A stretch of DNA of 64,000 nucleotides from Thermodesulfovibrionales bacterium (GCA_049302065.1 JBAQLU010000202.1:254-64253); one strand, 5' to 3'; numbered from the stretch's first letter, positions 1,957 to 34,159 are shown. Notes: generated from the letters alone by a model not told the origin. Numbers and translations: made by a program.

Positions 1957-2519
1957 TGCCAAGACCGAAGAAATATAGCTGTATCAAATGCAAACCTGAT
2001 GCTACCTATTTTAAGCCGATAGGCATTATTCATTCCCCGTTCAAGGATGTGCGTGGTATGCCCATCCAGCCGGCAGGCGCCAAGGGTGTTGCGGGAACTA
2101 TAGAAATTGAACCAGACTATATTGATGGCCTCAGAGATATCGAAGGCTTTTCTCATATTATCCTCATTTATCATTTCCACCTCTCCGGCGCATATTCTCT
2201 CTTGGTGAAACCTTTCCTGGATGACACGCTACGCGGTGTTTTTTCGACAAGGGCGCCGAGACGGCCAAATTCTATAGGCGTATCCGTAGTCAGACTGACA
2301 AGGGTGGAGGGGTGCATGCTTTTCATTGAAGATGTGGATATCGCAGATGGTACGCCTCTGCTGGATATAAAGCCTTATGTGCCGGAATTCGATGATAGAA
2401 AAGACGTGCGGACAGGGTGGCTCGCTCACAAGGCAGATAACGTACAATCGGCAAAAGCGGATGAAAGGTTTGGAAGAACAAAAGATACGGTTCAACAGAA
2501 CTCAAATAAAGGAACATGA
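1956..2519 (+). CDS. TsaA/YaeB (TrmO)-family methyltransferase-fold protein carrying a DUF134-like N-terminal 21-aa module
   Basis: Family blocks PIGIIHSPF, GFSHIILIYHFH, RRPNSIGVSVVRL and GTPLLDIKPY. The first 21 aa, MPRPKKYSCIKCKPDATYFKP, mirror MPRPKKFRCVKCKPDTNYFKP of the DUF134 protein at 10866. The stop overlaps the next start (ATGA). Confidence 0.7.
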   Translation: MPRPKKYSCIKCKPDATYFKPIGIIHSPFKDVRGMPIQPAGAKGVAGTIEIEPDYIDGLRDIEGFSHIILIYHFHLSGAYSLLVKPFLDDTLRGVFSTRAPRRPNSIGVSVVRLTRVEGCMLFIEDVDIADGTPLLDIKPYVPEFDDRKDVRTGWLAHKADNVQSAKADERFGRTKDTVQQNSNKGT

Positions 2520-3853
2520 TTCAGTCAATTACGACAAAAATTATTTTGGACAGTATTGCAGACGGGGTGTTTACTGTTGACGGAGATTGGAATATAACCT
2601 CTTTTAACCGGGCTGCCGAGCGAATAACAGGCATAACTTTCCAAAAGGCGATCGGCCAGAAATGCTTTGATGTTTTTCACGCCAATATTTGTCAGACGGC
2701 GTGTGCGTTGCGAGAGACGCTGAAGACCGGCAAAGAGATCATAGACCGGACGGTGAATATCCTTAACCATGAAGGAAAAGTTATTCCGGTCTCCATCAGC
2801 ACCGCTGTCTTGAAAGACGAAAGACGCAACATTATAGGCGGGGTGGAGACATTCAGGGATCTCTCAGCGTTGGAGGCTCTGAAAAAAGAAATCTCACGTC
2901 AATATTCAGTCGATGATATTATCAGCAAGAATCATAAAATCCAGGAGATTTTCGATATCCTTCAGGACATTGCTGAGAGTGAAAGCACTGTCCTGATTCA
3001 TGGAGAAAGCGGCACCGGCAAAGAACTTTTTGCCAGGGCAATCCATAATCTCAGCAGACGGAAAAAGTTCCCGTTTGTCGCAATAAATTGCGGAGCACTG
3101 CCTGACAACCTCCTGGAATCAGAACTCTTTGGATATAAAAAAGGCGCTTTTACCGATGCCAGAAAAGATAAGCCGGGTCGCTTTGCTATTGCTGAAGGTG
3201 GCACTATTTTTTTAGATGAAATCGGGGACCTCCCGCTTTTCCTTCAGGCCAAGCTTCTCCGTGTCCTGCAGGAGAAAGAGTATGAACCCCTGGGCGCTAT
3301 AAGCCCTGTAAAAGCAAATGTGCGTATCATTGCGGCCACAAATAAGAATCTTCAGTCGATGATTACCCAGGAAAAATTCAGAGAAGATCTTTTCTATCGC
3401 CTCAATATCGTAAAATTGGAACTCCCGCCACTTCGGGGCAGGAAAGAGGACATCCCTCTCCTTGTTGAGCACGTGATAAAAAAATTGAACCTGAAAAAAG
3501 GCAGGAATATAACGGGAATCTCGGACAGTGCACTACAGCTTTTTATGACCTATGATTTCCCTGGTAATATCAGGGAGCTTGAAAATCTTTTGGAGCATGC
3601 TTTTGTTATGTGCCGGAGCGGGGAGATCGGAAGCGGGCATCTGCCCGTGGAATTTCGAGATGCGGTAACAGTACCAAAAACCTCCGAAAATAATATCTCG
3701 TTGCGAGGCCGTTTCAAGGAATCCGAAGCAGAAATCGTCAGGGACACGTTAAAGAGGAACCATGGTCACCGTGGTCAAACGGCCAGAGAACTGGGGATAG
3801 ATTCAAGCACGCTCTGGAGGAAAATGAAACGGCTTGGCATAACGGACACGTAA
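2516..3853 (+). CDS. Sigma54-dependent transcriptional activator (PAS - AAA+ - Fis-type HTH)
   Basis: 445 aa. N-terminal PAS domain, Walker A GESGTGKE and Walker B TIFLDEIG. The sigma54-contact loop reads GAFTDA (canonical GAFTGA). C-terminal HTH TARELGIDSSTLWRKMKRLGI. Confidence 0.9.
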   Translation: MIQSITTKIILDSIADGVFTVDGDWNITSFNRAAERITGITFQKAIGQKCFDVFHANICQTACALRETLKTGKEIIDRTVNILNHEGKVIPVSISTAVLKDERRNIIGGVETFRDLSALEALKKEISRQYSVDDIISKNHKIQEIFDILQDIAESESTVLIHGESGTGKELFARAIHNLSRRKKFPFVAINCGALPDNLLESELFGYKKGAFTDARKDKPGRFAIAEGGTIFLDEIGDLPLFLQAKLLRVLQEKEYEPLGAISPVKANVRIIAATNKNLQSMITQEKFREDLFYRLNIVKLELPPLRGRKEDIPLLVEHVIKKLNLKKGRNITGISDSALQLFMTYDFPGNIRELENLLEHAFVMCRSGEIGSGHLPVEFRDAVTVPKTSENNISLRGRFKESEAEIVRDTLKRNHGHRGQTARELGIDSSTLWRKMKRLGITDT

Positions 3854-3860
3854 TAATTTT

Positions 3861-3901
3861 ATATTGCAATCCTGCATTGTCTCTTTGCAAGACATTGCAT
3901 T
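3861..3901. promoter_or_regulatory. Putative enhancer (UAS) for the sigma54 promoter at 3984
   Basis: ATATTGCAAT (3861-3870) plus the imperfect palindrome TTTGCAAG-AC-ATTGCATT (3884-3901). This is the same motif as at 8780-8816. Its centre lies about 93 bp upstream of the -24 GG. Confidence 0.5.
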
Positions 3902-3983
3902 TTAGCAGTATATTACTCAGCTTAAAATTGTTTCGTCAACTTAACCTTTTGATTTAGTTGGCTTATTTCGCTTAATCCCCATC

Positions 3984-3999
3984 TGGTATTTTTTTTGCT
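3984..3999 (+). promoter_or_regulatory. Sigma54 (-24/-12) promoter
   Basis: TGGTAT-TTTTT-TTGCT, with GG-N10-GC spacing exact. Intergenic and oriented toward the mrp/apbC-like gene. The conserved positions match the site at 8898. Confidence 0.6.
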
Positions 4000-4039
4000 T
4001 TATTCGGAGAGATACATATGTGATTCCCTGTATTCCTGT

Positions 4040-4135
4040 CGCAGGGATCCCATTTAGTACCTCCCCCTTGATGGAGAAACGAGGGATAGAGGACCGGTTG
4101 TTCAGTTTTCCCCCTCCTCTATCACCTCCCCTCAA
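4040..4135. repeat. C-run/G-run hairpin-rich repeat in the 5' UTR of the mrp-like gene
   Basis: CCCCC/GGGG-type segments (ctcccccttgatgg..., ttttccccctcctctatcacctcccctcaaggg) related to elements at 5371, 12739 and 61758. Track ORF 3941..4135 (-) is just a translation of this repeat. Confidence 0.35.
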
Positions 4136-4207
4136 GGGCGGTAGTGTATTATCAATATGCCTTGAGCCTGCTGAAGGATATAAAAATAAATAGTAAGGAG
4201 CTATGCA

Positions 4208-5098
4208 ATGGACAACGTTAGTGAAGGAAAAGAAGCCGCGAACATTTGTTCGTCAAAAAAACGTATCAGCAAGGATGATATCGAGGAACTTAAAGAGAAG
4301 CTTATGCTTGAGCAAAACCTTTGCGATGTAGACCATAAGATAATGGTCATGTCAGGTAAAGGCGGAGTAGGCAAGAGTTCTATTGCCGCGAATATCGCTG
4401 TCGGTCTTTCCCTGAAAGGGAAACAGGTCGGACTCATGGACATTGATATCCACGGACCGAGTATCCCGAAGATGGTCGGGCTTGAAGGGACACCGCTGAA
4501 ACAGTCTGAGGAAGGAATGATGCCTGTTGAATACAGCAATAATCTGAAAGTCATGTCTATCGGATTCCTGATCCGCGACAAGAAAGATGCGGTCATATGG
4601 AGGGCGCCGCTCAAGCACAGCATCATCAGGCAGTTTTTGACCGATGTCAGATGGGGAGATCTCGATTATCTTATTATTGATTGCCCGCCTGGGACCGGAG
4701 ACGAACTCATTTCGATAGCCCAGCTCCTTGAAGGAGCAGATGGCGCCGTTATTGTGACCACTCCTCAGGATGTTGCGCTCAACGATGTCAGGAAATCAAT
4801 TTCTTTCTGCCGTCACGTTGAGGTGCCTATTATCGGCGTAATAGAAAATATGAGCGGTTTTGTCTGTCCGCATTGCGGTATGTCTACTGATATTTTCAAA
4901 ACGGGCGGGGGAGAAAAAATGGCTTCGGAAATGGAAGTCCCTTTTTTGGGAAGGATACCGATCGACGCGAAAATAGTCGAACACAGTGATAGCGGAAGAC
5001 CTTTCTTACAATATGTTTCCGACTCTGAAACAGCGAAGGCGTTTGAATCCGTCATAGGCCCTCTTTTAAACCTGAACAAAGAGAAGGAGAGAAAATAA
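4208..5098 (+). CDS. Mrp/NBP35/ApbC-family Fe-S cluster carrier ATPase
   Basis: Deviant Walker A VMSGKGGVGKSS, DCPPGTGDE, and the CPHCG cluster-ligand motif. AAGGAG SD 7 nt upstream. Confidence 0.9.
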   Translation: MDNVSEGKEAANICSSKKRISKDDIEELKEKLMLEQNLCDVDHKIMVMSGKGGVGKSSIAANIAVGLSLKGKQVGLMDIDIHGPSIPKMVGLEGTPLKQSEEGMMPVEYSNNLKVMSIGFLIRDKKDAVIWRAPLKHSIIRQFLTDVRWGDLDYLIIDCPPGTGDELISIAQLLEGADGAVIVTTPQDVALNDVRKSISFCRHVEVPIIGVIENMSGFVCPHCGMSTDIFKTGGGEKMASEMEVPFLGRIPIDAKIVEHSDSGRPFLQYVSDSETAKAFESVIGPLLNLNKEKERK

Positions 5099-5099
5099 A

Positions 5100-5348
5100 G
5101 TGCCGATCTATGAATATCTTTGTGATGACTGCGGCAGGCGATTCGAGATAAACCAGTCGATGCGCGATCTTCCGATTGAAATATGTCCTGAATGCAAGGG
5201 AACTGTACGGAGGATCATTTCAGGAGGAAGCGGCTTTATTTTAAAGAGCCCCGGTTCCGAACCCCCTCTTCAGCCGCGCTGCGGGAAGAGCGAAACCTGC
5301 TGTGGCAGCAAAACACCCTGTGAGACGCCTTCCTGTGAATCCGGATAA
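5100..5348 (+). CDS. FmdB-family zinc-ribbon protein
   Basis: MPIYEYLCDDCGRRFE...CPECKG is the family signature. Cys-rich C-terminal tail. GTG start 1 nt after the mrp stop. Confidence 0.8.
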   Translation: MPIYEYLCDDCGRRFEINQSMRDLPIEICPECKGTVRRIISGGSGFILKSPGSEPPLQPRCGKSETCCGSKTPCETPSCESG

Positions 5349-5370
5349 TGGGATTAAGATAATTACTTTT

Positions 5371-5388
5371 CCCCTCTATCAAGAGGGG
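5371..5388. repeat. CCCCTCT-N4-AGAGGGG hairpin repeat (possible terminator after the FmdB-like gene)
   Basis: Perfect 7-bp stem. The same stem sequence recurs at 61758-61773. Confidence 0.5.
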
Positions 5389-5856
5389 ATTAAGGAGTGT
5401 GTTCCCGGCAGCAGTAGATGCAAGACTTCACCCTGTAAGGAATAAGCTCTTATTACGGCTAACACAAAGAAAGAGAGAATCTGAGGTATTCAAAATGTGT
5501 CTCACTTTCTCCCTAAAGTTGACAGGGCAGACACATCATCCGAAATTTTAAATACACCTGAAAACCCTCAGGTAGCGTGACATGCAACTTGTGCGGTTTT
5601 CCGGCACAAACCGACAGTCGTGCCGAGAACGGCGCCCACAGCATAAACCTCCATTCTCTTTGGCGCGGCGTGGGACGATGCCGTCTTGACACAACAGAAA
5701 ATAATCCTTGTCTTCCATAGGCATAACGAATTATCATTAAGCACTTTTTTGACTCGAAGAGGTCGGATAGACAGTGATAGCCCAAGCCGTTAATTTGATG
5801 AACTTCCTGAAGGGGCCGAAGCAGTTCATTATTCCCATCGTATTCAAGGCGGGTAG

Positions 5857-6545
5857 ATGAAAGAACTTATTCCCGTCGAAATAATCGAGAAAAAATCTAT
5901 CTGATTCGAGGCCACAAGGTCATGCTTGACAGCGATCTTGCCGAACTTTACGGCGTGGAAACGAAGCGACTCAATGAACAGGTTCACAGGAATCTAAAGC
6001 GATTTCCGGATGATTTCATGTTTCAGCTTACAGAGGAAGAAGCGGAATCTCTAAGGTCGCATTTTGCGACCTTAAAAAGCGGCAGGGGAAGACATCGAAA
6101 ATACTTACCCTATGCTTTTACCGAGCAGGGCGTTTCTATGCTCTCAAGTGTGTTGAACAGCGATCTGGCAATTGAGGTAAATGTCCAGATCATACGGACG
6201 TTTGTGAAGCTCCGCGAGATGCTGGAGCTTTTTAATCAATTCAGAGAGCGGGTCTTGAATCTCGATTCTTCCGTAACCGAGGAAATCCTGAAGCTTTATA
6301 TAGCGTACAAATCCTCAACGAACTTTGTTGATGTTGTGCCCCAGAAAAGCAGGTTGAGGCTCTCTATCAATATGCGTTTCAGCGAGATGGACGACCCGAA
6401 GGGTCTGTGCAAGGATGTGACGAATCTTGGCAGCTGGGGTAATGGAGACGTGGAGGACGGCCTCAGTTCAGCGGAGCAACTTGACGATGTAATGTATCTC
6501 GTTACTCAGTCGTTTGAGAAGAATCTGGATAATGAGGGGCAGTGA
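5857..6545 (+). pseudogene. Frameshifted, chimeric ORF6N (KilA-N-like) / DUF5655-like gene remnant
   Basis: ATG at 5857 gives MKELIPVEIIEKK, then a stop. The family sequence continues as IYLIRGHKVMLDSDLAELYGV in the next frame. The break is an A6 run (5890-5895) where A7 would restore the frame. The C-terminal half (YIAYKSSTNFVDVVPQKSRLRLSINM...DPKGL...WGNGD) resembles DUF5655 rather than an ORF6N C-terminus. Confidence 0.7.
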
Positions 6546-8779: not shown

Positions 8780-8816
8780 GATATTGCATTCTATATTTGC
8801 AATACATTGCAAATAT
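8780..8816. promoter_or_regulatory. Putative enhancer (UAS): 24-bp perfect palindrome plus a half-site
   Basis: ATATTTGCAAT-AC-ATTGCAAATAT at 8793-8816 (11-2-11, perfect), preceded by the half-site ATATTGCAT (8781-8789). The centre lies about 95 bp upstream of the -24 GG at 8899. Confidence 0.55.
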
Positions 8817-8897
8817 GCAGTAGGTGATTTTTTATCCGCAAACATCCTCTATACGCTAACGTTTTGATTAATCTGCATATTTCAAATTATTCCTTCC

Positions 8898-8913
8898 TGG
8901 TATATTGTTTGCT
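8898..8913 (+). promoter_or_regulatory. Sigma54 (-24/-12) promoter
   Basis: TGGTAT-ATTGT-TTGCT with exact GG-N10-GC spacing, intergenic. The predicted TSS (about 8923-8926) falls almost on the ATG at 8928, so the mRNA would be nearly leaderless. Confidence 0.6.
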
Positions 8914-8927: not shown

Positions 8928-9293
8928 ATGAAAATAGCCATCCCAATATTCGAAAACAGGATTTCTCCACGGTTTGATTGTGCTCCGGGTTTCAGATTAT
9001 GCGAAATGGAAGGAGACAGGATAACGGGTATCCATGAGATATCCTGTGAGGGATGGAATGATATGGACAGGGTTTCCCGATTAAAGGTACTGGGAATTGA
9101 TACCCTTATTTGCGGTGGTATTCCGGATTATCTGCTCAGCGTCCTTGCGAACAGCGGTATCAAGGTTATCCCCTGGGTAGCGGGCGATACCAGCGAGGCA
9201 TTAACCCTTTTTCTCCGGGGGCAATTGAACTCGGGTACGGTCATCTGCCCGGGAAGGAAAAGACGCCGCTGCAAGAGAGGCATAAAGGTTTAG
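8928..9293 (+). CDS. NifX/NifB-C-terminal-family (FeMo-cofactor-binding fold) protein 1
   Basis: MKIAIPIFENRISPRFDCAPGF is a typical N-terminus for the family. The track start at 8916 adds 4 aa and is less likely. Confidence 0.75.
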   Translation: MKIAIPIFENRISPRFDCAPGFRLCEMEGDRITGIHEISCEGWNDMDRVSRLKVLGIDTLICGGIPDYLLSVLANSGIKVIPWVAGDTSEALTLFLRGQLNSGTVICPGRKRRRCKRGIKV

Positions 9294-9352: not shown

Positions 9353-9721
9353 ATGAAACTCTGTATTAGTTCTACGGGAAGTGGTCTGGAGTCAACGGTT
9401 GACCCCAGATTTGGAAGGTGTCGGTACTTTCTTTTGATTGACACCGAAACGATGAATGTCGAGACTGTGGGAAATCCCGCTTTTATAGCAGGCGGCGGAG
9501 CAGGGATACAGGCTGCCCAGTTGGTAGTTAATAAAGGGGCAAAAGTGGTTCTCACCGGAGATGTCGGACCGAATGCCTTTCAGGCCCTTCAAGCCGGCGG
9601 TGTAAAGATAGTTACAGGCGCTCAGGGTTCGGTCAAAGATGTAATTGAAAGATTTAACAAAGGTGAACTCGGGTATGCCGGAGCCGCTTCAGTTGAATCG
9701 CACGCCGGGATGAGGAGGTGA
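9353..9721 (+). CDS. NifX/NifB-C-terminal-family protein 2
   Basis: MKLCISSTG...VDPRFGRCRYFLLID...VVLTGDVGPNA are typical family blocks. Confidence 0.8.
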   Translation: MKLCISSTGSGLESTVDPRFGRCRYFLLIDTETMNVETVGNPAFIAGGGAGIQAAQLVVNKGAKVVLTGDVGPNAFQALQAGGVKIVTGAQGSVKDVIERFNKGELGYAGAASVESHAGMRR

Positions 9722-9726: not shown

Positions 9727-9942
9727 ATGCCGAGAGGAACTGGATCAGGATCAACGAATGCAGGAACTGGAATGGGATCGGGTAAGGGAAGGTGTGGAGG
9801 AGGAAGGGGAGGCAGCAGGTCCGGCGGTCCCGGAGGTGAATGCATCTGCCTCTCCTGCGGAGCGACAGCAATCCACCAGGCAGGCACTCCCTGTTATCAG
9901 GTGAAATGCCCCAAGTGTGGGGTAAGTATGGCAAGGAAATAA
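9727..9942 (+). CDS. DUF5320-family small Gly/Cys-rich protein
   Basis: MPRGTGSGSTNAGTGMGSGKGRCGGGRGG, then CICLSCG...CPKCG. GGAGG SD 8 nt upstream of the ATG at 9727. Confidence 0.7.
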   Translation: MPRGTGSGSTNAGTGMGSGKGRCGGGRGGSRSGGPGGECICLSCGATAIHQAGTPCYQVKCPKCGVSMARK

Positions 9943-9956
9943 GGAGACCGTCTTTT

Positions 9957-10835
9957 ATGATTATCTCAATTGCGAGCGGAAAAGGAGGAACGGGCAAGAC
10001 TACCTTAACCGCTGCATTCGCCCATCTTGCCGATAATGCCATGATTGCTGATTGCGACGTTGATGCAGCCGACCTTCATCTTATACTGACACCGGATATC
10101 ATCAGACAGGAGCCATTTTACGGAGGCCAACTGCCTTCTATTGATTATGATCGATGCACCCAGTGCGGGTTATGTGAACAACAATGCCGTTTTGGAGCCA
10201 TCCAGGCTGTAAAGGTCGATCCTGTCTCCTGCGAAGGTTGCGGGGTCTGTGCTTACGTTTGTCCTGAACAGGCCATATCCATGAAGGAAAGACTTTCCGG
10301 CAACTGGTTTTTATCTGAAACAAGAGAAGGCTGGATGGTTCACGCACGGCTGGGAATAGCAGCGGAAAATTCCGGGAAGCTTGTCTCCATGGTCCGTCAG
10401 CAGGCGAAGGAACTGGCTGAAAAGGAGAAGAAGAATCTCGTTATCATTGACGGTCCGCCCGGCATTGGTTGTCCGGTAATAGCCTCAATAGGCGGTGTAA
10501 ACCTTGTTCTTGTTGTGACAGAGCCGACCCTTTCGGGAATCCACGATTTAAAAAGGATTCTCGAAGTAGCAACCCATTTTAATATCCCGGCGATGGTATG
10601 CGTCAATAAATGTGATATCAATGCTGAAAATACCCTCGCCATAGAAGGTTATTGTGCGGGAAAAGGGATTGCTATAGCAGGCAGCATCCCATATGCACCG
10701 GAAGTAACCAAGGCTATGCTGAACGGGCTCTCCGTAGTGGAATATCCCTGTGCTCAAGTGACCGTCGAAGTGAAAAGGATATGGAGAAAGGTTGAAGAGT
10801 ATCTTTTTGCCGAGTCGCATAATCTTTTCGCTTGA
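9957..10835 (+). CDS. MinD/ParA-type P-loop ATPase with inserted 2x[4Fe-4S] ferredoxin domain
   Basis: IASGKGGTGKTT Walker A, plus CTQCGLCEQQC and CEGCGVCAYVCP ferredoxin motifs. The in-frame ATG at 9957 has an AAGGAGA SD. The track extension back to 9840 overlaps the DUF5320 gene. Confidence 0.85.
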   Translation: MIISIASGKGGTGKTTLTAAFAHLADNAMIADCDVDAADLHLILTPDIIRQEPFYGGQLPSIDYDRCTQCGLCEQQCRFGAIQAVKVDPVSCEGCGVCAYVCPEQAISMKERLSGNWFLSETREGWMVHARLGIAAENSGKLVSMVRQQAKELAEKEKKNLVIIDGPPGIGCPVIASIGGVNLVLVVTEPTLSGIHDLKRILEVATHFNIPAMVCVNKCDINAENTLAIEGYCAGKGIAIAGSIPYAPEVTKAMLNGLSVVEYPCAQVTVEVKRIWRKVEEYLFAESHNLFA

Positions 10836-10866
10836 TTTATTATGAGCTTATGCTCATAATAAACAA
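10832..10866 (+). promoter_or_regulatory. Sigma70-type promoter (TTGATT-N17-CATAAT) with an embedded 28-bp palindromic operator; predicted leaderless transcript
   Basis: -35 at 10832-10837 and -10 at 10855-10860. The ATG at 10866 has no SD. Perfect palindrome TTTATTATGAGC-TTAT-GCTCATAATAAA spans 10836-10863. Confidence 0.55.
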
Positions 10867-11156
10867 TGCCTCGGCCAAAAAAATTCAGATGTGTGAAGTG
10901 CAAACCAGATACTAATTATTTCAAACCAAGGGGAATTCCCCTGATAGAACTTGAGGAAGTCTCGATCTCAATGGATGAACTGGAGGCGCTCAGGCTTGCA
11001 GATTATGAAGAATTCTATCATGAAGAAGCCGCTGCAAATATGAAGATATCAAGGCAGACATTCGGAAGAATCTTGAATGCTGCACACAAAAAAGTTGCTG
11101 AATGTCTGTTAAAGGGCAAGGCATTGAAAATAGAGACTCAAAAAAAGGAGGAATAA
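10866..11156 (+). CDS. DUF134-family predicted DNA-binding protein
   Basis: N-terminus MPRPKKFRCVKCKPDTNYFKPRGIP, followed by an HTH-like ELEALRLADYEEFYHEEAAANMKISRQTFGRIL. Confidence 0.8.
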   Translation: MPRPKKFRCVKCKPDTNYFKPRGIPLIELEEVSISMDELEALRLADYEEFYHEEAAANMKISRQTFGRILNAAHKKVAECLLKGKALKIETQKKEE

Positions 11157-11158
11157 AG

Positions 11159-11539
11159 ATGAAAATATGTTTTCCGGTATCAAAAGTTAATGGGATGGAG
11201 AGCGAGGTTTACGGTCATTTCGGATCAGCGCCCGCATTCCTTGTTATCGAGACGGATGCTAACACCATAACAACAATTAATAACAAAGACCAGCATCATG
11301 TACACGGCGCGTGTAATCCAATGAAAGCCCTGAACAATCAGAACGTCGATGCAATCGTAGTTGGCGGAATCGGTGCAGGTGCATTGAGCAAGCTGAATCA
11401 ATTAGGGATTAAGGTTTTTCAGGCAAAGGCGTCAACTATTAAGGAAAATATTGCGATATTAAAGAATCAGAGCCTGCCTGAATTTTCAACATCACACTGT
11501 TGTTCAGGTCATAGCAAAATCGGTGGCTGTGGACATTAA
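11159..11539 (+). CDS. NifX/NifB-C-terminal-family protein 3
   Basis: MKICFPV...VYGHFGSAPAFLVIE...AIVVGGIGAGA. AAGGAGG SD upstream of the in-frame ATG at 11159. Confidence 0.8.
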   Translation: MKICFPVSKVNGMESEVYGHFGSAPAFLVIETDANTITTINNKDQHHVHGACNPMKALNNQNVDAIVVGGIGAGALSKLNQLGIKVFQAKASTIKENIAILKNQSLPEFSTSHCCSGHSKIGGCGH

Positions 11540-12090: not shown

Positions 12091-12546
12091 ATGAGCATTT
12101 TAGTCTTCGGCATAGGTAACTTACTGCGCTCTGACGATGGAGTGGGTTTGCAGGTAATTGGAGCTCTCGGGGAGGAAAAGTTAGGAGATACTATTGATGT
12201 AATAGAAGGGTCTTCCTGTATCGATATCCTCGATGCATTAAAAGGTTACAGGAGAATCATTATTGTTGATGCGATACAGACCGGAGGTGAGCCTGGTACA
12301 ATCTATAAATTTTCCCTGGAAGATTTTAAAGATAAGCATACGATCCATTCTTACTCAACCCACCTGAATATGGATTTCCCCACTATGCTCGAATTGAGGG
12401 AAAAACTCTTTCCCGGTGAAATACCCTTAGATATCATAGTTATCGCAATAGAGGCAGAGGACATAACAACGATTTCGGATACCTGCACACCAAAGGTTCG
12501 GAAAGCTATACCAGAAGCTGTTGATATGATTAAGGGATTGATATAA
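12091..12546 (+). CDS. Hydrogenase maturation endopeptidase (HyaD/HybD/FrhD family)
   Basis: ILVFGIGNLLRSDDGVG N-terminal signature, IIIVDA and a downstream His. No hydrogenase structural gene in the window. Confidence 0.8.
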   Translation: MSILVFGIGNLLRSDDGVGLQVIGALGEEKLGDTIDVIEGSSCIDILDALKGYRRIIIVDAIQTGGEPGTIYKFSLEDFKDKHTIHSYSTHLNMDFPTMLELREKLFPGEIPLDIIVIAIEAEDITTISDTCTPKVRKAIPEAVDMIKGLI

Positions 12547-14548
12547 CGAGTTTATATAATTTCGGATATTCGTCTTTTGCAAGATATATATCTTCTTTTA
12601 AAAGCCTTACCCCCTCAGGCACATATTTCAAAAAATACTTCTTGCCTTTTGCAGAGGATAGAAAACCATATGCACCGAGTGCCTGCATATGACGCTGCAG
12701 GCGGCAAGGAAGTATGGATTCTCTGAATTCATTTTCAGTAATCCCCCTTAGTCCCCCTTTAGTAAATGGGGATTGAAGGGGATTTTGTGAGGCCGCATCC
12801 CCCTCAGCATTCAGAATAACATTCCCCCCCTTTTCTAAAGGGGGGGGAGGGGGGATTACTTGTTTAAGATAATAATCCAAAAGCCTTTCTCTCATATCAT
12901 CATTAAGGCGAAAATATGGATCCCATAAGAGTGAGACAACATCATAGGCTGGCGGGCCGATTCTTGCCCCCTGATAATCTATTATTCGTGGATTCCCTCC
13001 CTTTGTAATCATGATATTCTGTGACTGAAAATCACGGTGTATTACCGTCCTATGAAAAGAGTCGACCTTTTCAGCAAGTTTGTGGAAATCATCATTGAGT
13101 AAAAGCTCATTTGCTATTTTAATGTTTCTGATACCCCTGATAAATCTCTCAACAAAATAGCCTGTCTCCCATCTGAGATGTTCATAATCAAATATTCTCT
13201 TCCGGAGCAGAGGGCACTCTGATATATGTTCAGTCACTTCTGTGTGTATTAGGATGAGGATATCAATAACCTTTTTGTACATCTTTTCTATCATTCCCCG
13301 GTCTCGTGGACATTTCAGCCAGCTGTATAAAGAGAGATCACCAAAGTCTTCAAATAATGCGGTCTTGTTATCGGATGATATATCGATTAATTCAGGGACA
13401 GGAATAGAATGCCCTCTGAAGAAGTGTGTGTATTCAATATGCCTCTGAAAATCAGGATCTCCATCAGGAGACTGCATAAGCACTACTGAGTGTTTGTCGA
13501 GCTTGACCCTGGAATATTTCCTGTCAGATCCTCCTGTGCCAATGAGGAAAGAATTGCCTTCAGCTGAATCAAACAAATCTGACTCGCCGAGATCAATCTT
13601 GAATCCGGGACCGAGGATGCAGTTTTCGTAAAATTGCCCTTTATATGGATCAGGTCCTGTCCCCTGGAATGAAGTTAAAAAACATTGAGGAGTCTTGTCA
13701 TCCTGCCCCATTTTTGCGATCTCGGTTCCAGGCAGTACAATACAATTTCTCAGCGAAATGCCTTGACCTAATCTGCTGCCATTTTCAATAACCACATAGC
13801 CATCCATCTCAATATGCCCGCAGCCTTTTGCTGTTGGATGTATATAGACCATCTCGCCATTCCTTCTGAGTTCATTGATGACTGCTTTGGTATACGAAGA
13901 TGGTGTCCCGATGTCAGTCCAGTAACATCCACTTACATGAAATGTCCCGACTGTACCGCCTGCAGTTACAGCTTTCAACCAGGCATCTGTTACACTGGAA
14001 ACACCGGATGGGAGGAATCGGAGGAATTCCGGCTGGTAAACAGCTATGCCGGTAAAGGCCAAATTCTTTTTTTCCCCTGATGATGAGCTAAAACCTCTGA
14101 AGAAACCTCTTTCATCTATCGCAAGTTTATTAAATTCAGGATAATCATGCACAGCAAGGGTTACAAGATTATGGGATGTCAAATGAAAATCAATCAATTG
14201 CTGCAAATCAATATCAGAGACAATGTCTGCATTATGTACAAGGAACGTGCCGTCTTTGAGAAAATCCTCAGCATTTTTTAAAGCGCCACCTGTTCCGAGG
14301 ACAGGGTCTTCGGGAAAGAGTCTAATCTTATTACTGAATGCTGACTGCCTTATCCACTGCCTGATTGCCTCTTTTTTGTAATGAAGATTGACTCCTATTG
14401 ATGTGACAGGCAGTGCGGATATTTTTTTGAGGACGGATTCGAGCACAGGTTTCCCGAGAACCGGAAGTAATGGCTTCGGGATATTATTTGTGATCGGACG
14501 CAGCCTTTCCCCAAGTCCGGCAGCCAAAATGAATACTGAAAGGTTCAA
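12530..14548 (-). CDS. Bifunctional sugar-1-phosphate nucleotidyltransferase / anomeric sugar kinase (MurU/AmgK-like fusion), carrying an in-frame repeat insertion
   Basis: N-terminal ILAAGLGERLRPITNNIPKPLLPV (NTP-transferase), a central hexapeptide-like segment, and a C-terminal APH-type kinase (HRDFQSQNIMI, IDYQGARIGPPAYD). Adjacent to a DUF1343/NamZ-like gene. Confidence 0.65.
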   Translation of the reverse strand: MNLSVFILAAGLGERLRPITNNIPKPLLPVLGKPVLESVLKKISALPVTSIGVNLHYKKEAIRQWIRQSAFSNKIRLFPEDPVLGTGGALKNAEDFLKDGTFLVHNADIVSDIDLQQLIDFHLTSHNLVTLAVHDYPEFNKLAIDERGFFRGFSSSSGEKKNLAFTGIAVYQPEFLRFLPSGVSSVTDAWLKAVTAGGTVGTFHVSGCYWTDIGTPSSYTKAVINELRRNGEMVYIHPTAKGCGHIEMDGYVVIENGSRLGQGISLRNCIVLPGTEIAKMGQDDKTPQCFLTSFQGTGPDPYKGQFYENCILGPGFKIDLGESDLFDSAEGNSFLIGTGGSDRKYSRVKLDKHSVVLMQSPDGDPDFQRHIEYTHFFRGHSIPVPELIDISSDNKTALFEDFGDLSLYSWLKCPRDRGMIEKMYKKVIDILILIHTEVTEHISECPLLRKRIFDYEHLRWETGYFVERFIRGIRNIKIANELLLNDDFHKLAEKVDSFHRTVIHRDFQSQNIMITKGGNPRIIDYQGARIGPPAYDVVSLLWDPYFRLNDDMRERLLDYYLKQVIPPPPPLEKGGNVILNAEGDAASQNPLQSPFTKGGLRGITENEFRESILPCRLQRHMQALGAYGFLSSAKGKKYFLKYVPEGVRLLKEDIYLAKDEYPKLYKLVISIP
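12739..12858. repeat. 120-bp MITE-like element with 9-bp terminal inverted repeats, inserted in-frame in the kinase domain
   Basis: TAATCCCCC (12739-12747) and GGGGGATTA (12850-12858), with internal C-run/G-run hairpins. It translates to ...PPPPPLEKGGNVILNAEGDAASQNPLQSPFTKGGLRGI... Confidence 0.6.
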
Positions 14549-15870: not shown

Positions 15871-16342
15871 TTACATAACTTACCTTAATATCCATATCTT
15901 TTCGCAATGAGTGATAAACAGAGCAATATTTTTCCTGAGAAAGTGAGATTGCCCGGTCAAGCTTTTTGGGAGTTATGCCTTTGCCTGCAATGCGGATTTT
16001 CATATCAACGCCACTGAAATATTTCGGCGGGACAGGATTTCTCTCTCCGATGGTTTCGATCTCGAATTTTGTTATCTCAACCTTCATCTTCTTCAGAAAT
16101 AAAACTACATCTATGGCGAGGCAACCCGGAATGCTCATCAAAAGGCTGTCAGTCGGGATGCACCCCTCCTTTGCATCAGCATCGAAGTCAATTGCATAAC
16201 CGCGGATCCTTGCAGTGAAGACCAGGTCCTTCTCCCAGGTTAAAATTCCTCTGCTAATATTGGCGACATTTTCCTTGTATCCCTCTCCCTTTAGGGTTTT
16301 GTCCAAACCGGTAAGGGAACCTTCAGCTTCCTTTTCCTGCAT
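15854..16342 (-). CDS. OsmC/Ohr-family peroxiredoxin-like protein
   Basis: 162 aa with the OsmC fold pattern and Cys residues in EGCIPTD, PGCLAIDV and EKYCSVYHSL. Confidence 0.75.
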   Translation of the reverse strand: MQEKEAEGSLTGLDKTLKGEGYKENVANISRGILTWEKDLVFTARIRGYAIDFDADAKEGCIPTDSLLMSIPGCLAIDVVLFLKKMKVEITKFEIETIGERNPVPPKYFSGVDMKIRIAGKGITPKKLDRAISLSQEKYCSVYHSLRKDMDIKVSYVIEQNG

Positions 16343-16366
16343 ATTGTTTATTCTCCTTTAGTTTAC

Positions 16367-17125
16367 TTAAGGAATTGTATCAATTGAGGCAAACTTGGGT
16401 TCATGAAGCGGCAAGAGAATATCTGCCATATTTTTCACTTTAAGCACGATATCGTAAGCATCATATACATTGACATGAGTTCCGGGAGGTATTACTTCCA
16501 TCTCCATTGCCTTTATCTTTGGAGGCGGATTGAAATTTTCCATGATTAGACAGAAGCCTGTTATAGCAGCTTTCCCCTGTTCGGTGTCTATGAGGACTGT
16601 CATGCCACCTTCAGTATGTGCAGGGGTGTGAATCATTTTAATGCCGGGAAGGATTTCCGTATCCCCTGTGAGCTTTTTTATCTGACCTTTTTTTTCCACA
16701 TCTGTAATAAAATCTTCGTTGTAGCGGAAATCCAGCGGATGGGGATTATGTATTCTCTCCAGTTCTTTTTCATGGACATAGAATGTAGCGTTAATGCATT
16801 TATCATCGTTTTCACAATGGTCGTTATGTAAATGGGTATGTATAACAATATCGATATCTTCAGGCTTCAATCCCCATCGGCTCAACCCTTCCTCAAACTT
16901 GTAAATTTTTCCGCCGATTCCTTCCTCCCTGTCCCTGGTCTGCATTGGCGCCATTTCTCCTGTATCAACCAGTATTTTCTTGTCACCGCCCTCGAGATAC
17001 CAGCAATAGATGGGTATGGTATAAGGTTTTCCATAGTCATGCTGGTATGTCATCATGCCTTTATCAAAAGCCTTTGTCCCCATAACTATAGGATGTATTT
17101 TGTAGGTCTTAGCTTGCAAATTCAT
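16367..17125 (-). CDS. MBL-fold hydrolase (N-acyl-homoserine-lactonase-like subgroup)
   Basis: HTHLHNDHCEN (HxHxDH), plus later HTPAHTEG and a conserved Asp/His. Confidence 0.75.
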   Translation of the reverse strand: MNLQAKTYKIHPIVMGTKAFDKGMMTYQHDYGKPYTIPIYCWYLEGGDKKILVDTGEMAPMQTRDREEGIGGKIYKFEEGLSRWGLKPEDIDIVIHTHLHNDHCENDDKCINATFYVHEKELERIHNPHPLDFRYNEDFITDVEKKGQIKKLTGDTEILPGIKMIHTPAHTEGGMTVLIDTEQGKAAITGFCLIMENFNPPPKIKAMEMEVIPPGTHVNVYDAYDIVLKVKNMADILLPLHEPKFASIDTIP

Positions 17126-17137
17126 TGTCTTCTCTCC

Positions 17138-17407
17138 TTATCTTTTTATTATATCAAATCTTGCTATCTCTACCTTCATCTTCTTTAAAAATAACCTTAC
17201 GTCAATAGCCAGACAACTTGGTAGGCCCATCAATAGACTATCCGTTGGAATATATCCTTCCTTTGCATCAGCGTCAAAATCAATTGCATATCCACAAATC
17301 CTTGCCGTAAAGACTATGTCTTTTCCCCAGGTTAAAATCCCTCTGCTTGTGTTCGCTGCGTTTTTCTTATAGAGGTTTCGAGTTGAGCGGAGAACCCCGA
17401 ACTTCAT
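17138..17407 (-). pseudogene. Truncated paralogue of the OsmC gene (covers roughly residues 20-105 only)
   Basis: NTSRGILTWGKDIVFTARICGYAIDFDADAKEGYIPTDSLLMGLPSCLAIDVRLFLKKMKVEIARFDI aligns colinearly with the 15854-16342 product. It lacks the C-terminal third. Confidence 0.65.
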
Positions 17408-18285: not shown

Positions 18286-19542
18286 ATGAGCGAATCAGCA
18301 AAATGGGATTGGGATACAAAAGATAAATTAGTAGCAAACCTCAATGATTGGAAAAAGAAGTTTATCGACCTTCGTGAATTAACCCCCTCTGATGACGGTG
18401 AAAAAATAGCCGCAGTAGTCCAGCCGGAAAAAGGAAAATTTACCACCTGTGTCAATGGAGATGTCTGGGAAGAGAAGTTTGAGAGAGTATACTCGCTTAA
18501 GTTCAAACCTGATAATCAGCTTATATCTTCAACATACAGAGATTATATATGGGCTTTAGCTGTTGATCATGAGATGTGGGAAGAAACATTTGATTTCATA
18601 TGGAACCTGACATTAACTCAGGATGGAAAAGGTATTGCCGTGAACATCAAACGGGATCCGCAACTTGGAGCTGCATTGAATGGACAGGTGTGGGAGGCCC
18701 TATATATGGATGCAAGACATCTTGCTGTAAGCCCAGATGGACAGAAGACTGCTTCATGTATTCAGACACAACCCATGAAGACATTAGATATTTTTACCTA
18801 TCAGAAAGGTATCTGGACCGTTGCAGTAGATGGAACTCCTTGGGAAAAGACTTTCTGGACTGTCTGGGGACCTGTCTTTAGCTCTGATAGTAATCATATA
18901 GCTGCATGCGTAAGGACAGGGTTTGCTCAATATAATATCGCAGTAGATGGAAACACATGGGAAGGGCCATTTGGTTTAGTGTGGGAGCCAATTTTTAAAC
19001 CAAATAGCAATGATGTCATTGCGCCTATCAGAACTCCGAAGGGCACTACACTCGCAATGAACGGAAAGCCGATCTGGGGATTTTTCTTCAATGTATGGCG
19101 TCAGAGATTCAGTCCCGATGGTCAAAAGTTAGCTGCGGTTGTTGTCCCCGCATTTTCTCGGTGGACAATTGCGGTTGATGGTACACCCTGGGGCACTACA
19201 TTCAGCGATGCAGTTCTCTCTCCAGTATTCAGCCCGAATAACAAACGGGTCGCTGCAGTAGTAAAAGATAACAACAGGTGGTTAGTTGCCATTGATGGTA
19301 CACCATGGGCAGAAAAATTCGATAACGTATGGGACCCTGTCTTTAGCCCTGATAGCAATACAGTGATAGCAAAGGCTGAAAGAAACGGTAAGTTTTATAT
19401 AGTTGTTGACGGTAAGGTTGGCAAAAAAGGGTACGAATATCTGTGGAATCCTGTTTTTAGCTCGGACGGAAAGAAATTGTTAATCCGCTGCGTTGATGGT
19501 GGAAAGTATTACCGGAAAGTAATTCCAATCAATGAAATATAA
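18286..19542 (+). CDS. Cytoplasmic beta-propeller-like protein built from about 9-10 PD40-like repeats
   Basis: Roughly 40-aa periodicity of (S/K)PD(G/S)xxIAxxV...(V/I)AVDGxPWxxxFxxVWxPVF. No signal peptide. Only 14 bp upstream of the HmcE-like gene. Confidence 0.6.
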   Translation: MSESAKWDWDTKDKLVANLNDWKKKFIDLRELTPSDDGEKIAAVVQPEKGKFTTCVNGDVWEEKFERVYSLKFKPDNQLISSTYRDYIWALAVDHEMWEETFDFIWNLTLTQDGKGIAVNIKRDPQLGAALNGQVWEALYMDARHLAVSPDGQKTASCIQTQPMKTLDIFTYQKGIWTVAVDGTPWEKTFWTVWGPVFSSDSNHIAACVRTGFAQYNIAVDGNTWEGPFGLVWEPIFKPNSNDVIAPIRTPKGTTLAMNGKPIWGFFFNVWRQRFSPDGQKLAAVVVPAFSRWTIAVDGTPWGTTFSDAVLSPVFSPNNKRVAAVVKDNNRWLVAIDGTPWAEKFDNVWDPVFSPDSNTVIAKAERNGKFYIVVDGKVGKKGYEYLWNPVFSSDGKKLLIRCVDGGKYYRKVIPINEI

Positions 19543-26570: not shown

Positions 26571-28301
26571 ATGAAAATGACAGGGGCTGAGATATTCATT
26601 GAAAGTCTGAAGAGAGAAGGGGTAAAGCATATTTTCGGGTATCCCGGTGGCGTGATTTTGAATATCTTTGACCTGCTTTATGATGACAAAGATATACAGT
26701 TAATTCTTACCAGACACGAACAGGGCGCAGTGCATGCAGCTGATGGTTATGCCCGCTCTACAGGGAAAGCGGGTGTCGTGCTGGTGACTTCAGGTCCGGG
26801 TGCTACCAATACGATTACCGGACTTGCTACAGCATCTATGGATTCAATACCGCTCGTTGTTTTTTCAGGGCAGGTTCCGACTATGCTCATCGGGAATGAT
26901 GCTTTCCAGGAAGCTGATATTGTGGGCATTTCCAGACCCTGTACAAAATATAATTTTCTTGCAAAAGATGTAAAAGACATTTCAAAGATTGTCAGAGAAT
27001 CTTTTCATATCGCTACAACAGGACGTCCGGGGCCGGTGCTTATTGATCTTCCCAAGGATGTAACATCAGCCAAGGCAGAGTTCACCTGGCCGGAAATCAA
27101 GATCAGGAGCTATAATCCAACACTTGAAGGCAACAAGTGGATGATCAACCAGGCAGCACAGTTAATAGCCAAGTCAAAGAGGGCTCTCATTGTTGCAGGT
27201 GGCGGTGTCATACTATCGGGAGCACACAGGGAGCTAAAGGAACTTGCTGAAATAGCGAACATACCTGTTACCATGACTCTCATGGGACTGGGAGGATTCC
27301 CCGGCACCCATTCACTTTCCCTCGGTATGCCGGGAATGCATGGGACATATTATGCGAATAAATCCATTCAGGAGTCTGATTTATTAATCGCTATAGGAAT
27401 GCGCTTTGATGACAGAGTGACCGGCAAACTCGATGCCTTTGCGCCAAATGCAAAAATTGTCCATATTGATATTGATCCGACTTCAATAAGGAAAAACGTA
27501 CGTGTTGATGTCCCTATCGTCGGTGATGTGAAAAAGGTGCTGACAGTTTTAAACAGGATAATGAAGGAAGATATCAAAGAGCAGTGGGAAGAAGTCCGAA
27601 AGGCCTGGCTGAAGCAGATAGAGGCCTGGAAACAGGAAAGGCCCATGAGCTATACATACGACGAAGAAGTAATAAAGCCTCAGTTTGTGGTCGAAAAGAT
27701 TTTTGAGCTTACCAAAGGAGATGCAATAATTTCTACCGAAGTCGGTCAGAACCAGATGTGGGCAGCCCAGTTCTATAAATTCGATAAACCCAGAATGTGG
27801 CTGACATCGGGGGGACTGGGCACCATGGGATATGGTTTCCCTGCTGCAATCGGCGCTCAGATTGCTCATCCGAACAAGCTGGTTATTGATATCGCTGGTG
27901 ATGGCAGCATACAGATGAATATTCAGGAACTTGCAACCGCGGTCATTAACAAGCTGCCGGTAAAGGTTGCAATACTCAATAACCGTTATCTCGGGATGGT
28001 ACGTCAGTGGCAGGAACTCTTCTTCGGGGAGCGATATTCACACACACATCTTGAAGTAGTCCCGGATTTTGTGAAACTGGCTGAAGCATATGGTGCAATA
28101 GGTCTCAGGGCTACGAAACCGAGTGAGGTTGAACCTGTCCTGAAAGAGGCTTTTAAGATAAAGAAGACGGTATTTATGGATTTTGTTGTTTACTGGAAGG
28201 AGAAAGTTTACCCCATGGTGCCTGCGGGCGCGCCGATCGATCAGATGCTCTTTGAGGAGAAGAAAGAGAAGGAAGAAAAGAAACTAAAGGCGGTGAAGTA
28301 G
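26571..28301 (+). CDS. ilvB: Acetolactate synthase (biosynthetic), large subunit
   Basis: 576 aa ThDP enzyme. Blocks [13 protein letters not shown], and [16 protein letters not shown]...NN for ThDP-Mg binding. Followed directly by the small subunit. Confidence 0.92.
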
Positions 28302-28790
28302 ATGCGGCATACAATATCACTTCTTGTAGAAAATAAATTTGGTGTCCTTTCCAGGATTTCCGGGCTTTTCAGCGGCAGAGGATATAACATAGAAAGTCTT
28401 TCAGTTGGTGAGACCATTGATCCTCTGATATCAAACATGACAATCGTTACAAGCGGCGATGACCAGATAATAGAACAGATAACAAAGCAGCTCAATAAGC
28501 TTATTGATGTCATAAAGGTTGTTGATATAACCGAACTTGACCATGTCGAAAGAGAGATGGTCCTGATTAAAGTTGCACCGAGGCAGCAGGATAAGGCAGA
28601 GGTTCTCAGGATTGCCGACATATTCAGGGGCAGGGTTGTAGATTCAAGCCAGAAAACATATACCATTGAGATCACCGGCGATGAAAAGAAGATAGAGGCT
28701 ATCATTGAGCTATTCAAACCAATGGGGATCAAGGAATTCGTTAGAACGGGAAAGATCGCCATTGCGCGCGAGGGTATTAAGAAAGTCTGA
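28302..28790 (+). CDS. ilvN: Acetolactate synthase small (regulatory, ACT-domain) subunit
   Basis: [33 protein letters not shown] is the family signature. The start abuts the ilvB stop. Confidence 0.92.
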
Positions 28791-29012
28791 TCCCCATCAG
28801 AAAATCCTGTAAACCTTAAATCCGTAAGCTCACGGTATAAATAATTTCGTATAGAAAGACTCAGCACACTTCTCAGTCGACTGGCGCGATGTTCTCAAAG
28901 AAACAAACACTCCAGGGCATCCTGATAATACTGCGGAGTACGACTCGGAATGGTCAAGTAAGCCCATAAAAGAAAGCCGCCCCCCTATCGACTAAACATT
29001 CCTCAACGTCAG

Positions 29013-29696
29013 TTATATCGCTTGTTCCAGCAGTTGACCATGCTCCTTTAACCAGGCCTTTGCCTTATCCATGGTCGAAGTTCGTGCGCGGACGATGTTC
29101 CAGAACCTGGGCGTGTGGTTGGCCTCCATGAGGTGGGCGAGTTCATGGACGATGACGTAGTCGATGACAAACATCGGCGCTTTAATCAGGCGCCAGTTAA
29201 AATTGACGTTGTCATTCAGGGTGCAGGAACCCCAACGGTAACGGTTGTCCACGATCTTGACCCCGGCAATATCAACGCCGAGGTCGCGGGCGTGAAGCTT
29301 CACTCGTGGGACAAGCTTTTCTTTGGCCTTGCCGATATACCATTCCAACAAGGCCTCTGTCCGCTTCTCCCCACGTGCAGCCGGAATAAGGAACCGCTGG
29401 CTGAACTGAACCCCGGCCAGCCCCGTTTTGACTACCTCGATCCGGTATTGACGGCCCAGATAGAGCGCAGATTCGCCGCTGACCAGTTCCTTCCCAGGGG
29501 CATGGGGCAGGTCCTGATATTTCTGCGAATGACCGATTTTTTCGTAAATCCATTGGCGCTTTGATTCCACCACCTGTTGGATTGTTTCGTCGGATATTCC
29601 TTCCGGAGCATGTACCGCTACCCTACGATCTCGCTCGACGGTGATGGTCAGTTTGCGTCGCTTGACAGATTTTTGGATGGTGTATACCAATTTCAT
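29013..29696 (-). CDS. DUF45/YgjP-type zinc metallopeptidase (M48-like)
   Basis: HELAHLMEANH (HExxH) near the C-terminus. Immediately downstream of hsdR, a common association. Confidence 0.8.
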   Translation of the reverse strand: MKLVYTIQKSVKRRKLTITVERDRRVAVHAPEGISDETIQQVVESKRQWIYEKIGHSQKYQDLPHAPGKELVSGESALYLGRQYRIEVVKTGLAGVQFSQRFLIPAARGEKRTEALLEWYIGKAKEKLVPRVKLHARDLGVDIAGVKIVDNRYRWGSCTLNDNVNFNWRLIKAPMFVIDYVIVHELAHLMEANHTPRFWNIVRARTSTMDKAKAWLKEHGQLLEQAI

Positions 29697-29700
29697 TCAA

Positions 29701-33743: not shown

Positions 33744-33769
33744 CTTCCGCTCCCTTTATCCCTTTTCTA

Positions 33770-33952
33770 TCAGGGTTTGATATAGGCATTCAGGCCGATG
33801 ATGACAGGTTTGTCGTTTACTTTGGCGGTGGTAACAGCATTTCCCCTCGTGCTCGCAACCACAAGTGTTTTGCCGGATGCCGACGGAGTGGGCGTTTCCA
33901 GGTCAATTTCGATATAAAGCTTGTTGTCCTTGATTTCAACTTTCATTGCCAT
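33770..33952 (-). CDS. 60-aa hypothetical protein
   Basis: AAGGAGA SD 7 nt before the ATG at 33952. MAMKVEIKDNKLYIEIDLETPTPSASGKTLVVAST... The track ORF upstream extension is read-through from the hsdR fragment. Confidence 0.5.
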   Translation of the reverse strand: MAMKVEIKDNKLYIEIDLETPTPSASGKTLVVASTRGNAVTTAKVNDKPVIIGLNAYIKP

Positions 33953-34016
33953 TGGTATATCTCCTTTTCTTGATTGATTTTGATTCCATTGCTTTGCTGC
34001 GTGCCTCAATGAAGCC

Positions 34017-34127: not shown

Positions 34128-34159
34128 ATATTTGCCTATTTTAATAACCTACAGACCGC

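Follow-up and report, generated by a model that had tools for sequence, protein, structure and literature searches.

What controls expression of an iron-sulfur (Fe-S) carrier gene, mrp, and its zinc-ribbon neighbor fmdB, when the gene directly upstream encodes an activator of sigma-54 RNA polymerase? The question is raised by positions 3861-4207 of a 64,000-nucleotide (nt) stretch of DNA from a Thermodesulfovibrionales bacterium (GCA_049302065.1 JBAQLU010000202.1:254-64253; the whole stretch is called the window below), in which a preliminary description had recognized a sigma-54 promoter at 3984-3999 with enhancer-like motifs upstream and a long leader containing a C-run/G-run hairpin downstream. 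Our analysis of the sequence makes it probable that 3861-3999 is the control region of the mrp-fmdB operon, that it belongs to an orp-like regulon of the adjacent OrpR-type enhancer-binding protein (EBP), and that the leader is a passive repeat. The predicted elements of this region, and the partner region elsewhere in the window, are the following:

3865-3876, plus strand: box A, TGCAATCCTGCA (TGCA-N4-TGCA), putative activator site.
3886-3899, plus strand: box B, TGCAAGACATTGCA (TGCAA-N4-TTGCA), putative activator site.
3896-3907, plus strand: box C, TGCATTTTAGCA, putative activator site; its first TGCA is common with box B.
3942-3954, minus strand: IHF-like site, AATCAAAAGGTTA, a perfect match to WATCARNNNNTTR in a consensus search.
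3984-3999, plus strand: sigma-54 -24/-12 promoter TGGTAT-TTTTT-TTGCT, TGGTATTTTTTTTGCT, from motif matches.
8798-8913, plus strand: partner composite promoter (TGCA boxes, IHF site, TGGTAT-N5-TTGCT) upstream of a NifX-like cluster, from motif searches.

The hexamer TGGTAT occupies 3984-3989, the TTTTT spacer 3990-3994 and TTGCT 3995-3999, as first described. Since its GG and GC are 12 nt apart, the element stands in the register of sigma-54 -24/-12 promoters (TGGCAC-N5-TTGCW-like). The pattern TGGTAT-N5-TTGC (TGGTATNNNNNTTGC), which had been seen by eye at two places only, indeed has exactly two matches in the window, at 3984 and 8898, with 0.21 expected, and the looser pattern TGGYAYNNNNNTTGCW returned the same two. 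When aligned pairwise, the two control regions share blocks in identical order; an ordered composite of TGCA-N6-TGCA, the IHF consensus and TGGYAY-N5-TTGC matched twice in the window and in none of 100 dinucleotide-preserving shuffles. Two further matches came up as possible members of the regulon and were judged to be chance, namely TGGTAATTCCTTTGCT at 14549, which is accompanied by neither TGCA boxes nor an IHF site, and TGCAATATTGCA at 43105, which lies within an open reading frame (ORF) with no promoter close by.

The enhancer-like motifs proposed earlier were located at 3861-3870 (ATATTGCAAT) and 3884-3901 (TTTGCAAGACATTGCATT). The palindrome TGCAANNNNTTGCA has two matches in the window, at 3886 and 8798 (0.18 expected), and these lie 98 bp (3886) and 100 bp (8798) upstream of their TGG, in agreement with the like distance claimed for both promoters. 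In total, the TGCA boxes of the mrp promoter span the region 77-119 bp upstream of TGG. Box A takes the form of a perfect palindrome, TGCAATATTGCA, in relatives, and box C has a counterpart, TGCAAATATGCA, at -90 of the 8898 promoter in every relative that carries this promoter. The IHF consensus WATCARNNNNTTR has seven matches in the window, two of which are on the minus strand at the two promoters (3942-3954 and 8857-8869), 42 and 41 bp upstream of TGG. Transcription would start near 4010, as placed 12 nt past the C of the -12 GC, and relative to this predicted start box B is centered at about -117, box A at about -139 and the IHF-like site at about -62.

To view these elements across species we used contigs, chosen individually, that encode close homologues of the EBP (78-90% identity in the EBP). 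Eight of these relatives carry Mrp, with an EBP-to-Mrp gap of 282-358 nt, and the gap was aligned for the window and these eight (nine sequences, 66% mean column identity). Upstream of the predicted start, the invariant columns are both TGCA tetramers of box A (3865-3868 and 3873-3876), ATTGCA of box B (3894-3899), GCA of box C (3905-3907), AAC, A and TT within 3943-3955 at the IHF-like site, a T at 3959, and GGTAT and TTTTTGC of the promoter; past the predicted start, a handful of isolated leader bases are invariant, as are the Shine-Dalgarno sequence and the region of the ATG, and nothing else. At the level of sequence, the predicted elements stand out clearly as a phylogenetic footprint.

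The promoter before mrp is kept in 8/8 of the Mrp-carrying relatives. Its partner before the NifX-like cluster is kept in six of the eight, these being all whose loci are long enough (the L164 and L168 loci end earlier). The offsets of the elements from TGG are constant within 1-3 bp: at the mrp promoter box A lies at -119 to -123 in 9/9 sequences and box B at -98 to -102 in 7/9, the first half-site of box B having diverged to GCA in L165 and L169, where box C is present at -89; at the NifX promoter the TGCA boxes lie at -100 and -90. The exact IHF consensus was matched at -41/-42 in 9 of 16 promoters and is missing, among the NifX promoters, from that of L167. We also observed that the -24/-12 element before mrp is duplicated in tandem in L170 (7465-7501), where TGGTATTCTTTTTGC and TGGTATCCTTTTTGC stand 22 nt apart. 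In another relative, L166 (8001-9900), the OrpR-like EBP gene (79% identity) is followed by a small ORF and an antitoxin gene, with no Mrp-FmdB genes and no sigma-54 promoter, which suggests that the target operon was lost or rearranged there.

The genes on which this reading draws are listed below:

2516-3853, plus strand: EBP gene, PAS - AAA+ sigma-54 interaction - HTH_8, OrpR-like (Pfam PF13426, PF00158, PF25601, PF02954).
4195-4200, plus strand: Shine-Dalgarno sequence AAGGAG, 7 nt before the ATG at 4208; AGGAG is invariant in the nine-sequence alignment.
4208-5098, plus strand: Mrp/NBP35 Fe-S carrier gene, MrpORP-like, P-loop domain only (Pfam ParA/NUBPL, 3.8e-104).
5100-5348, plus strand: FmdB-family zinc-ribbon gene, 2 nt past mrp (Pfam Zn_ribbon_8, TIGR02605).
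8928-9293, 9353-9721 and 11102-11539: PF02579 Di-Nase/NifX-like proteins (Pfam).
9840-10835: CbiA+Fer4 protein (Pfam).

The product of 2516-3853 is the only EBP found in the window. Its PAS domain contains C50, C59 and C63 together with D52 (C-x-D-x6-C-x3-C, within KCFDVFHANICQTAC), and the protein carries the GAFTDA variant of the GAFTGA loop. By analogy with OrpR, and judging from the cysteine triad only, this PAS domain would hold a redox-sensitive [4Fe-4S] cluster. The C-x-[DE]-x6-C-x3-C PAS motif is present in at least 75 loci (74 fetched loci, from metagenome-assembled genomes labelled as several phyla, and the window), and it stands exactly 160 residues before GAFT[DG]A in 71/77 matches. 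In a separate count, many of the fetched loci were found to have TGGCAY-N5-TTGC 150-300 nt past the EBP gene.

The best NCBIfam match of the Mrp protein is NF041136 (MrpORP), with 399.9 bits over profile positions 3-257 of 365, as compared to 242 bits for ApbC. The score is under the MrpORP cut-off of 450 because the fused Di-Nase domain of the Desulfovibrio protein (PMC6345978) is absent. The pair of Mrp and zinc-ribbon genes recurs in 7/8 of the Mrp-carrying relatives with DNA, and also in the P0020 gene table; in L165 an unannotated 44-aa ORF follows Mrp in place of the zinc-ribbon gene. The second operon, from 8928, encodes two NifX-like (Di-Nase) proteins, a CbiA ATPase with two ferredoxin motifs, a DUF134 protein, a further Di-Nase protein, a CGGC protein and a HycI-like protease. 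The two operons are separated by unrelated genes, for an ORF6N protein, a metallo-beta-lactamase-fold protein and a radical SAM protein. In L161, L164, L168 and L169 a DUF134 and NifX-like gene pair lies directly upstream of the EBP gene, and in the window such a pair (10866-11539) lies within the second operon; as read from these gene maps, the content of the predicted regulon is kept and its order is shuffled between the window and the relatives.

The start of the second operon deserves a separate remark. The NifX-like gene has an ATG at 8928 (MKIAIP...), about 4 nt past the transcription start predicted near 8924 and with no Shine-Dalgarno sequence, and the position of this ATG/GTG is kept in L162, L165, L167, L169 and L170. 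The start chosen by the ORF caller, 8916, is 3 nt past the -12 element and upstream of the predicted transcription start. These positions suggest that the mRNA of the NifX-like operon is near-leaderless.

The combination of genes and promoters closely resembles a known system. In Desulfovibrio vulgaris Hildenborough, OrpR (DVU2106, PAS-AAA+-HTH), the sigma-54 RNA polymerase and IHF co-activate two operons (PMC8359166, PMC3897727), which in ChIP-seq are the only OrpR targets (PMC8359166). Residues C52, C61 and C65 of OrpR, with D/E54, hold a redox-sensitive [4Fe-4S] cluster, and a rising redox potential switches activation off (PMC8359166); a regulome table of D. vulgaris gives the loop of DVU2106 as GAFTDA (PMC4641369). 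The EBP of the window is likewise a single-component PAS-AAA+-HTH protein with C-x8-C-x3-C spacing, an acidic residue at +2 (as compared with the published OrpR residue positions) and a GAFTDA loop, and exactly two sigma-54 promoters were counted in the window by its gene. At the D. vulgaris promoters, IHF sites separate the activator site from the promoter (PMC3897727, PMC8359166), the EBP site being at -131 or -88 and the IHF sites at -79 or -43 (PMC3897727); the predicted sites of the window follow the same plan, with palindromic activator sites about 90-130 bp upstream and, closer to the promoter, an IHF-like site. The targets also correspond, with an Mrp/NBP35 carrier, Di-Nase (ORP/NifX-like) proteins and a CbiA-ferredoxin ATPase (Orp3/4-like). 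The small regulon by the EBP gene that had been proposed from the promoter/enhancer pair is supported, with both promoters and their spacing kept in relatives and genes that match OrpR/orp; the identification with OrpR/orp and the IHF sites are additions made here.

There are also clear differences. The organism belongs to the phylum Nitrospirota (Thermodesulfovibrionales) and not to Desulfobacterota; the operons of the window are co-directional, about 5 kb apart and separated by unrelated genes, whereas those of D. vulgaris are divergent around the EBP gene; the Mrp of the window has no fused Di-Nase domain, the Di-Nase proteins being separate; mrp is accompanied by an FmdB zinc-ribbon gene downstream and preceded by a leader of about 200 nt with a palindromic element; and the activator site is TGCA-N4/6-TGCA, unlike the OrpR site GGGCGYRTTTTGCGCCC. 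A difference in DNA specificity between the phyla is expected. In its general architecture the region also resembles promoters of the NtrC/NifA type (glnAp2, nifH), with GG and GC 12 nt apart and an IHF site interposed between the promoter and dyad sites about 100-140 bp upstream, and NtrC sites are TGCA-rich dyads. It differs from these in its -24 hexamer (TGGTAT), in the Cys-rich PAS input of the EBP as opposed to a receiver or GAF domain, and in its targets, which are genes for Fe-S and metallocluster handling.

Downstream of the promoter the mRNA would begin with a long leader, in which the following features were predicted:

4010-4207, plus strand: predicted 5' leader, about 198 nt, from the inferred start at 4010 to the ATG at 4208.
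4022-4049, plus strand: small hairpin CCCTG...CAGGG, from the minimum-energy fold; its stem is kept in six type-1 leaders.
4036-4171, plus strand: palindromic C-run/G-run element of about 135 nt, with a long imperfect hairpin at about 4050-4151 (nhmmer envelope and fold).

The preliminary description had called for folding 4010-4207; the region 4010-4215 is strongly folded as RNA (-64.8 kcal/mol, z = -3.2 versus dinucleotide shuffles), and the C-run/G-run inverted repeat is real; the modulation of expression proposed for it is neither supported nor excluded, and the element behaves like a palindromic repeat element. A leader of this kind (type-1) is common to six sequences, namely the window, L162, L161, L168, L164 and L167; the leaders of L165, L169 and L170 (type-2) are shorter, and their hairpin, with a C-rich loop, is unrelated in sequence. 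A search of the L165, L169 and L170 leaders with the type-1 element (nhmmer) found no copy there, the only match being one of 7 bits at L170 219-283, outside the leader. An ORF within the leader, starting with the ATG at 4071 and in frame with ORF 4020-4193, was considered as an upstream ORF and rejected, having no Pfam match and no Shine-Dalgarno sequence; moreover, relatives show 1-nt and 4-nt indels, and the leader is therefore taken to be non-coding.

A homologous element is found at an unrelated locus, L152 3322-3459 (E = 5.9e-9 in a single-sequence nhmmer search), where it is flanked by genes for a prepilin peptidase and a HAMP-HisKA histidine kinase, a context that has nothing to do with mrp. 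Within the window, the leader element has weak similarity to 12800-12929 (E = 0.029). In the same area, at 12737-12860, we noticed a 124-nt C-run/G-run palindrome in-frame within ORF 12530-14548 (minus strand), which belongs to the nucleotidyltransferase/aminoglycoside-phosphotransferase family; the palindrome adds the peptide IPPPPPLEKGG...SPFTKGGLRGI after the kinase domain with the reading frame intact, in a manner that recalls Rickettsia palindromic elements, and related copies occur at L170 184-295 and L045 1780-1898. The leader element resembles dispersed palindromic repeats of the REP/BIME, MITE-like and Rickettsia-palindromic-element types in several ways: it is an imperfect palindrome, about 100-135 nt long, whose two strands fold equally well; it is present at some orthologous loci and absent from others; a homologous copy sits between genes that have no relation to mrp; and a related C/G-run element lies in-frame within an ORF. 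Unlike REP/MITE families, it has no defined terminal inverted repeats or target-site duplications, and no known repeat family was matched. Most likely, and as far as sequence comparison can tell, the leader element is a REP/MITE-like palindromic repeat lodged in the 5' untranslated region and persisting in this sub-lineage, an origin that we infer from these likenesses.

Several observations speak against the reading of this locus as an orp-like control region with a passive leader, and they are weighed here together with the other explanations they might favor. The -24 hexamer is TGGTAT, and the canonical one is TGGCAC. A terminator search between the EBP stop codon (3853) and the promoter found none, so that transcription of the EBP gene could run on into mrp as well; there is also a single weak sigma-70-like match, at 3885-3914. 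One might hence suppose that the -24/-12 match is a chance look-alike in AT-rich DNA and that mrp is transcribed from a sigma-70 promoter or by read-through. We regard this as extremely improbable, since GGTAT and TTTTTGC are invariant in nine diverged spacers, the hexamer pair is repeated at the partner promoter of all relatives with a locus that extends to it, the composite is absent from shuffles, and sigma-70-like matches number 5 versus 2.9 +/- 1.8 expected. Neither an rpoN gene (an ORF with an RpoN box) nor IHF/HU genes were found in the 64 kb window, and their presence in the genome is assumed. The exact IHF consensus is also missing from the Mrp promoter in L164, L165, L168, L169 and L170. 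As for the activator, the 17-bp OrpR palindrome of D. vulgaris, GGGCGYRTTTTGCGCCC (PMC8359166), was not found in 3854-3983, where TGCA-N4/6-TGCA dyads stand instead. Because the sites differ, the boxes are assigned to the adjacent EBP by adjacency and conservation only, and the TGCA boxes might be bound by another regulator, an EBP or repressor encoded elsewhere, with the adjacent EBP acting on other targets; the 64 kb at hand are only part of a genome. Such an arrangement is very unlikely in our view. Box A starts 12 nt past the EBP stop codon in every relative, the boxes travel with the EBP gene, no second EBP is present in the window, and L166, which lost mrp downstream of the EBP, has lost the promoter too; in D. 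vulgaris, most EBP genes adjoin the promoter that they control (PMC8359166, citing Kazakov et al. 2015).

The remaining objections concern the leader. In ~1.3 Mb of mixed loci there is only one homologous extra copy of the leader element, and a long hairpin of some kind occupies this position in all nine sequences, which could mean that structure is under selection. With the promoter as described, the leader hairpin could then be a functional cis-regulatory RNA, acting as a switch of translation or stability, as a protein-binding site or as a sensor of a ligand, and Mrp output would be set independently of the near-leaderless NifX operon. Indeed, all nine Mrp leaders are long (133-200 nt), each with a large stable hairpin (z -1.9 to -4.8), conservation extends to GATGGAG, to CCUCC-like tracts and to the CCCTG/CAGGG hairpin, the indels noted above exclude a coding explanation, and the partner promoter is nearly leaderless, so that the long leader is specific to mrp. 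The type-1 stem, specified by hand, is 86% paired over seven sequences versus about 60% with slid partners. However, column shuffles give 85%, and 133 of 500 of them reach the observed covariation score; the high pairing is uninformative because C-runs facing G-runs pair anyway. In addition, the RNAalifold covariation term for the leader is positive, i.e. unfavorable, and folding energies on the plus and minus strands are comparable, with no asymmetry pointing to selection at the RNA level. Rfam 15 gave no match at the gathering threshold, and even at E <= 10 the best matches (sR18, 17 bits, and KDPG-aldolase, 13 bits) were far below thresholds. No intrinsic terminator or attenuator was found in the leader, terminator-like matches occurring only inside mrp, and the Shine-Dalgarno sequence is in the hairpin loop of the minimum-energy fold and thus unpaired and not sequestered. 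Finally, the type-1 and type-2 hairpins are unrelated in sequence, and the homologous element in L152 sits at an unrelated locus. Taken together, these sequence-based tests favor a REP/MITE-like element over a dedicated riboregulator, and we consider a regulatory RNA here unlikely. A role of the leader in mRNA stability or translation is nevertheless possible, because every relative has a long hairpin there. It is likewise unlikely that the long mrp leaders (type-1 in six lineages and type-2 in three) form an undescribed class of cis-acting RNA, in which a palindromic repeat was recruited for regulation. If they did, the leader RNA would adjust how well the mRNA of the Fe-S carrier is translated or how stable it is, apart from the near-leaderless NifX-like operon, and might do so by binding a protein or by responding to metal or redox state.

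Returning to the orp-like control region, the motifs themselves, their rarity, conservation and geometry, and the signatures of the encoded proteins are observed directly, and from them we infer binding, redox control and the start site. The HTH_8 domain of the EBP would bind the TGCA-box palindromes (3865-3907), centered about 117-139 bp upstream of the predicted start, and an IHF/HU-type protein would bend the DNA at the WATCARNNNNTTR site (3942-3954). This would allow the AAA+ ring to contact sigma-54 RNA polymerase in the closed complex at TGGTAT-N5-TTGCT (3984-3999), where ATP hydrolysis would open the promoter and transcription would proceed from near 4010. If the three-cysteine PAS domain holds a [4Fe-4S] cluster as in D. 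vulgaris OrpR, activation would occur only at low redox potential. The same EBP would also fire the 8898 promoter, and with it the NifX-like, CbiA-ferredoxin and DUF134 genes.

A few other features of the window were noticed. After fmdB there is a hairpin, CCCCTCTATCAAGAGGGG, at 5371-5388 that lacks a T-run; about 570 nt of non-coding sequence separate it from an ORF6N-DUF5655 gene (window 5349-6545); in relatives, a PAS-HisKA histidine kinase gene follows fmdB where the window has the ORF6N gene, and 5693-5749 is an inverted copy (82%) of 42405-42461. The segment 5349-6545 looks like a local rearrangement or insertion. At 28000-42000 the GC content is 0.48-0.54 versus about 0.42 elsewhere, with a strongly negative AT skew, and this segment may be an acquired island or a gene cluster of different composition. 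A 221-nt direct repeat, 76% identical, is present at 16059-16279 and 17151-17371 (copies 1092 nt apart), and 18812-19359 contains repeats of 33-75 nt with start-to-start spacings of 117 and 348 nt; the repeats at 16059-17371 and 18812-19359 probably reflect repeated protein domains.

The outcome for the control region is confirmatory and not surprising, and it makes a better annotation of the target genes and of both promoters possible. It would extend the OrpR/sigma-54/IHF design, so far characterized only in Desulfovibrio, to Thermodesulfovibrionales (Nitrospirota), and it provides a testable activator-site code for this lineage, TGCA-N4-TGCA and TGCAA-N4-TTGCA dyads at fixed distances. Since EBPs of the Cys-PAS family appear to lie next to sigma-54 promoters in metagenome-assembled genomes labelled as many phyla, these results suggest a widespread redox-gated module for Fe-S and metallocluster handling proteins in anaerobes.

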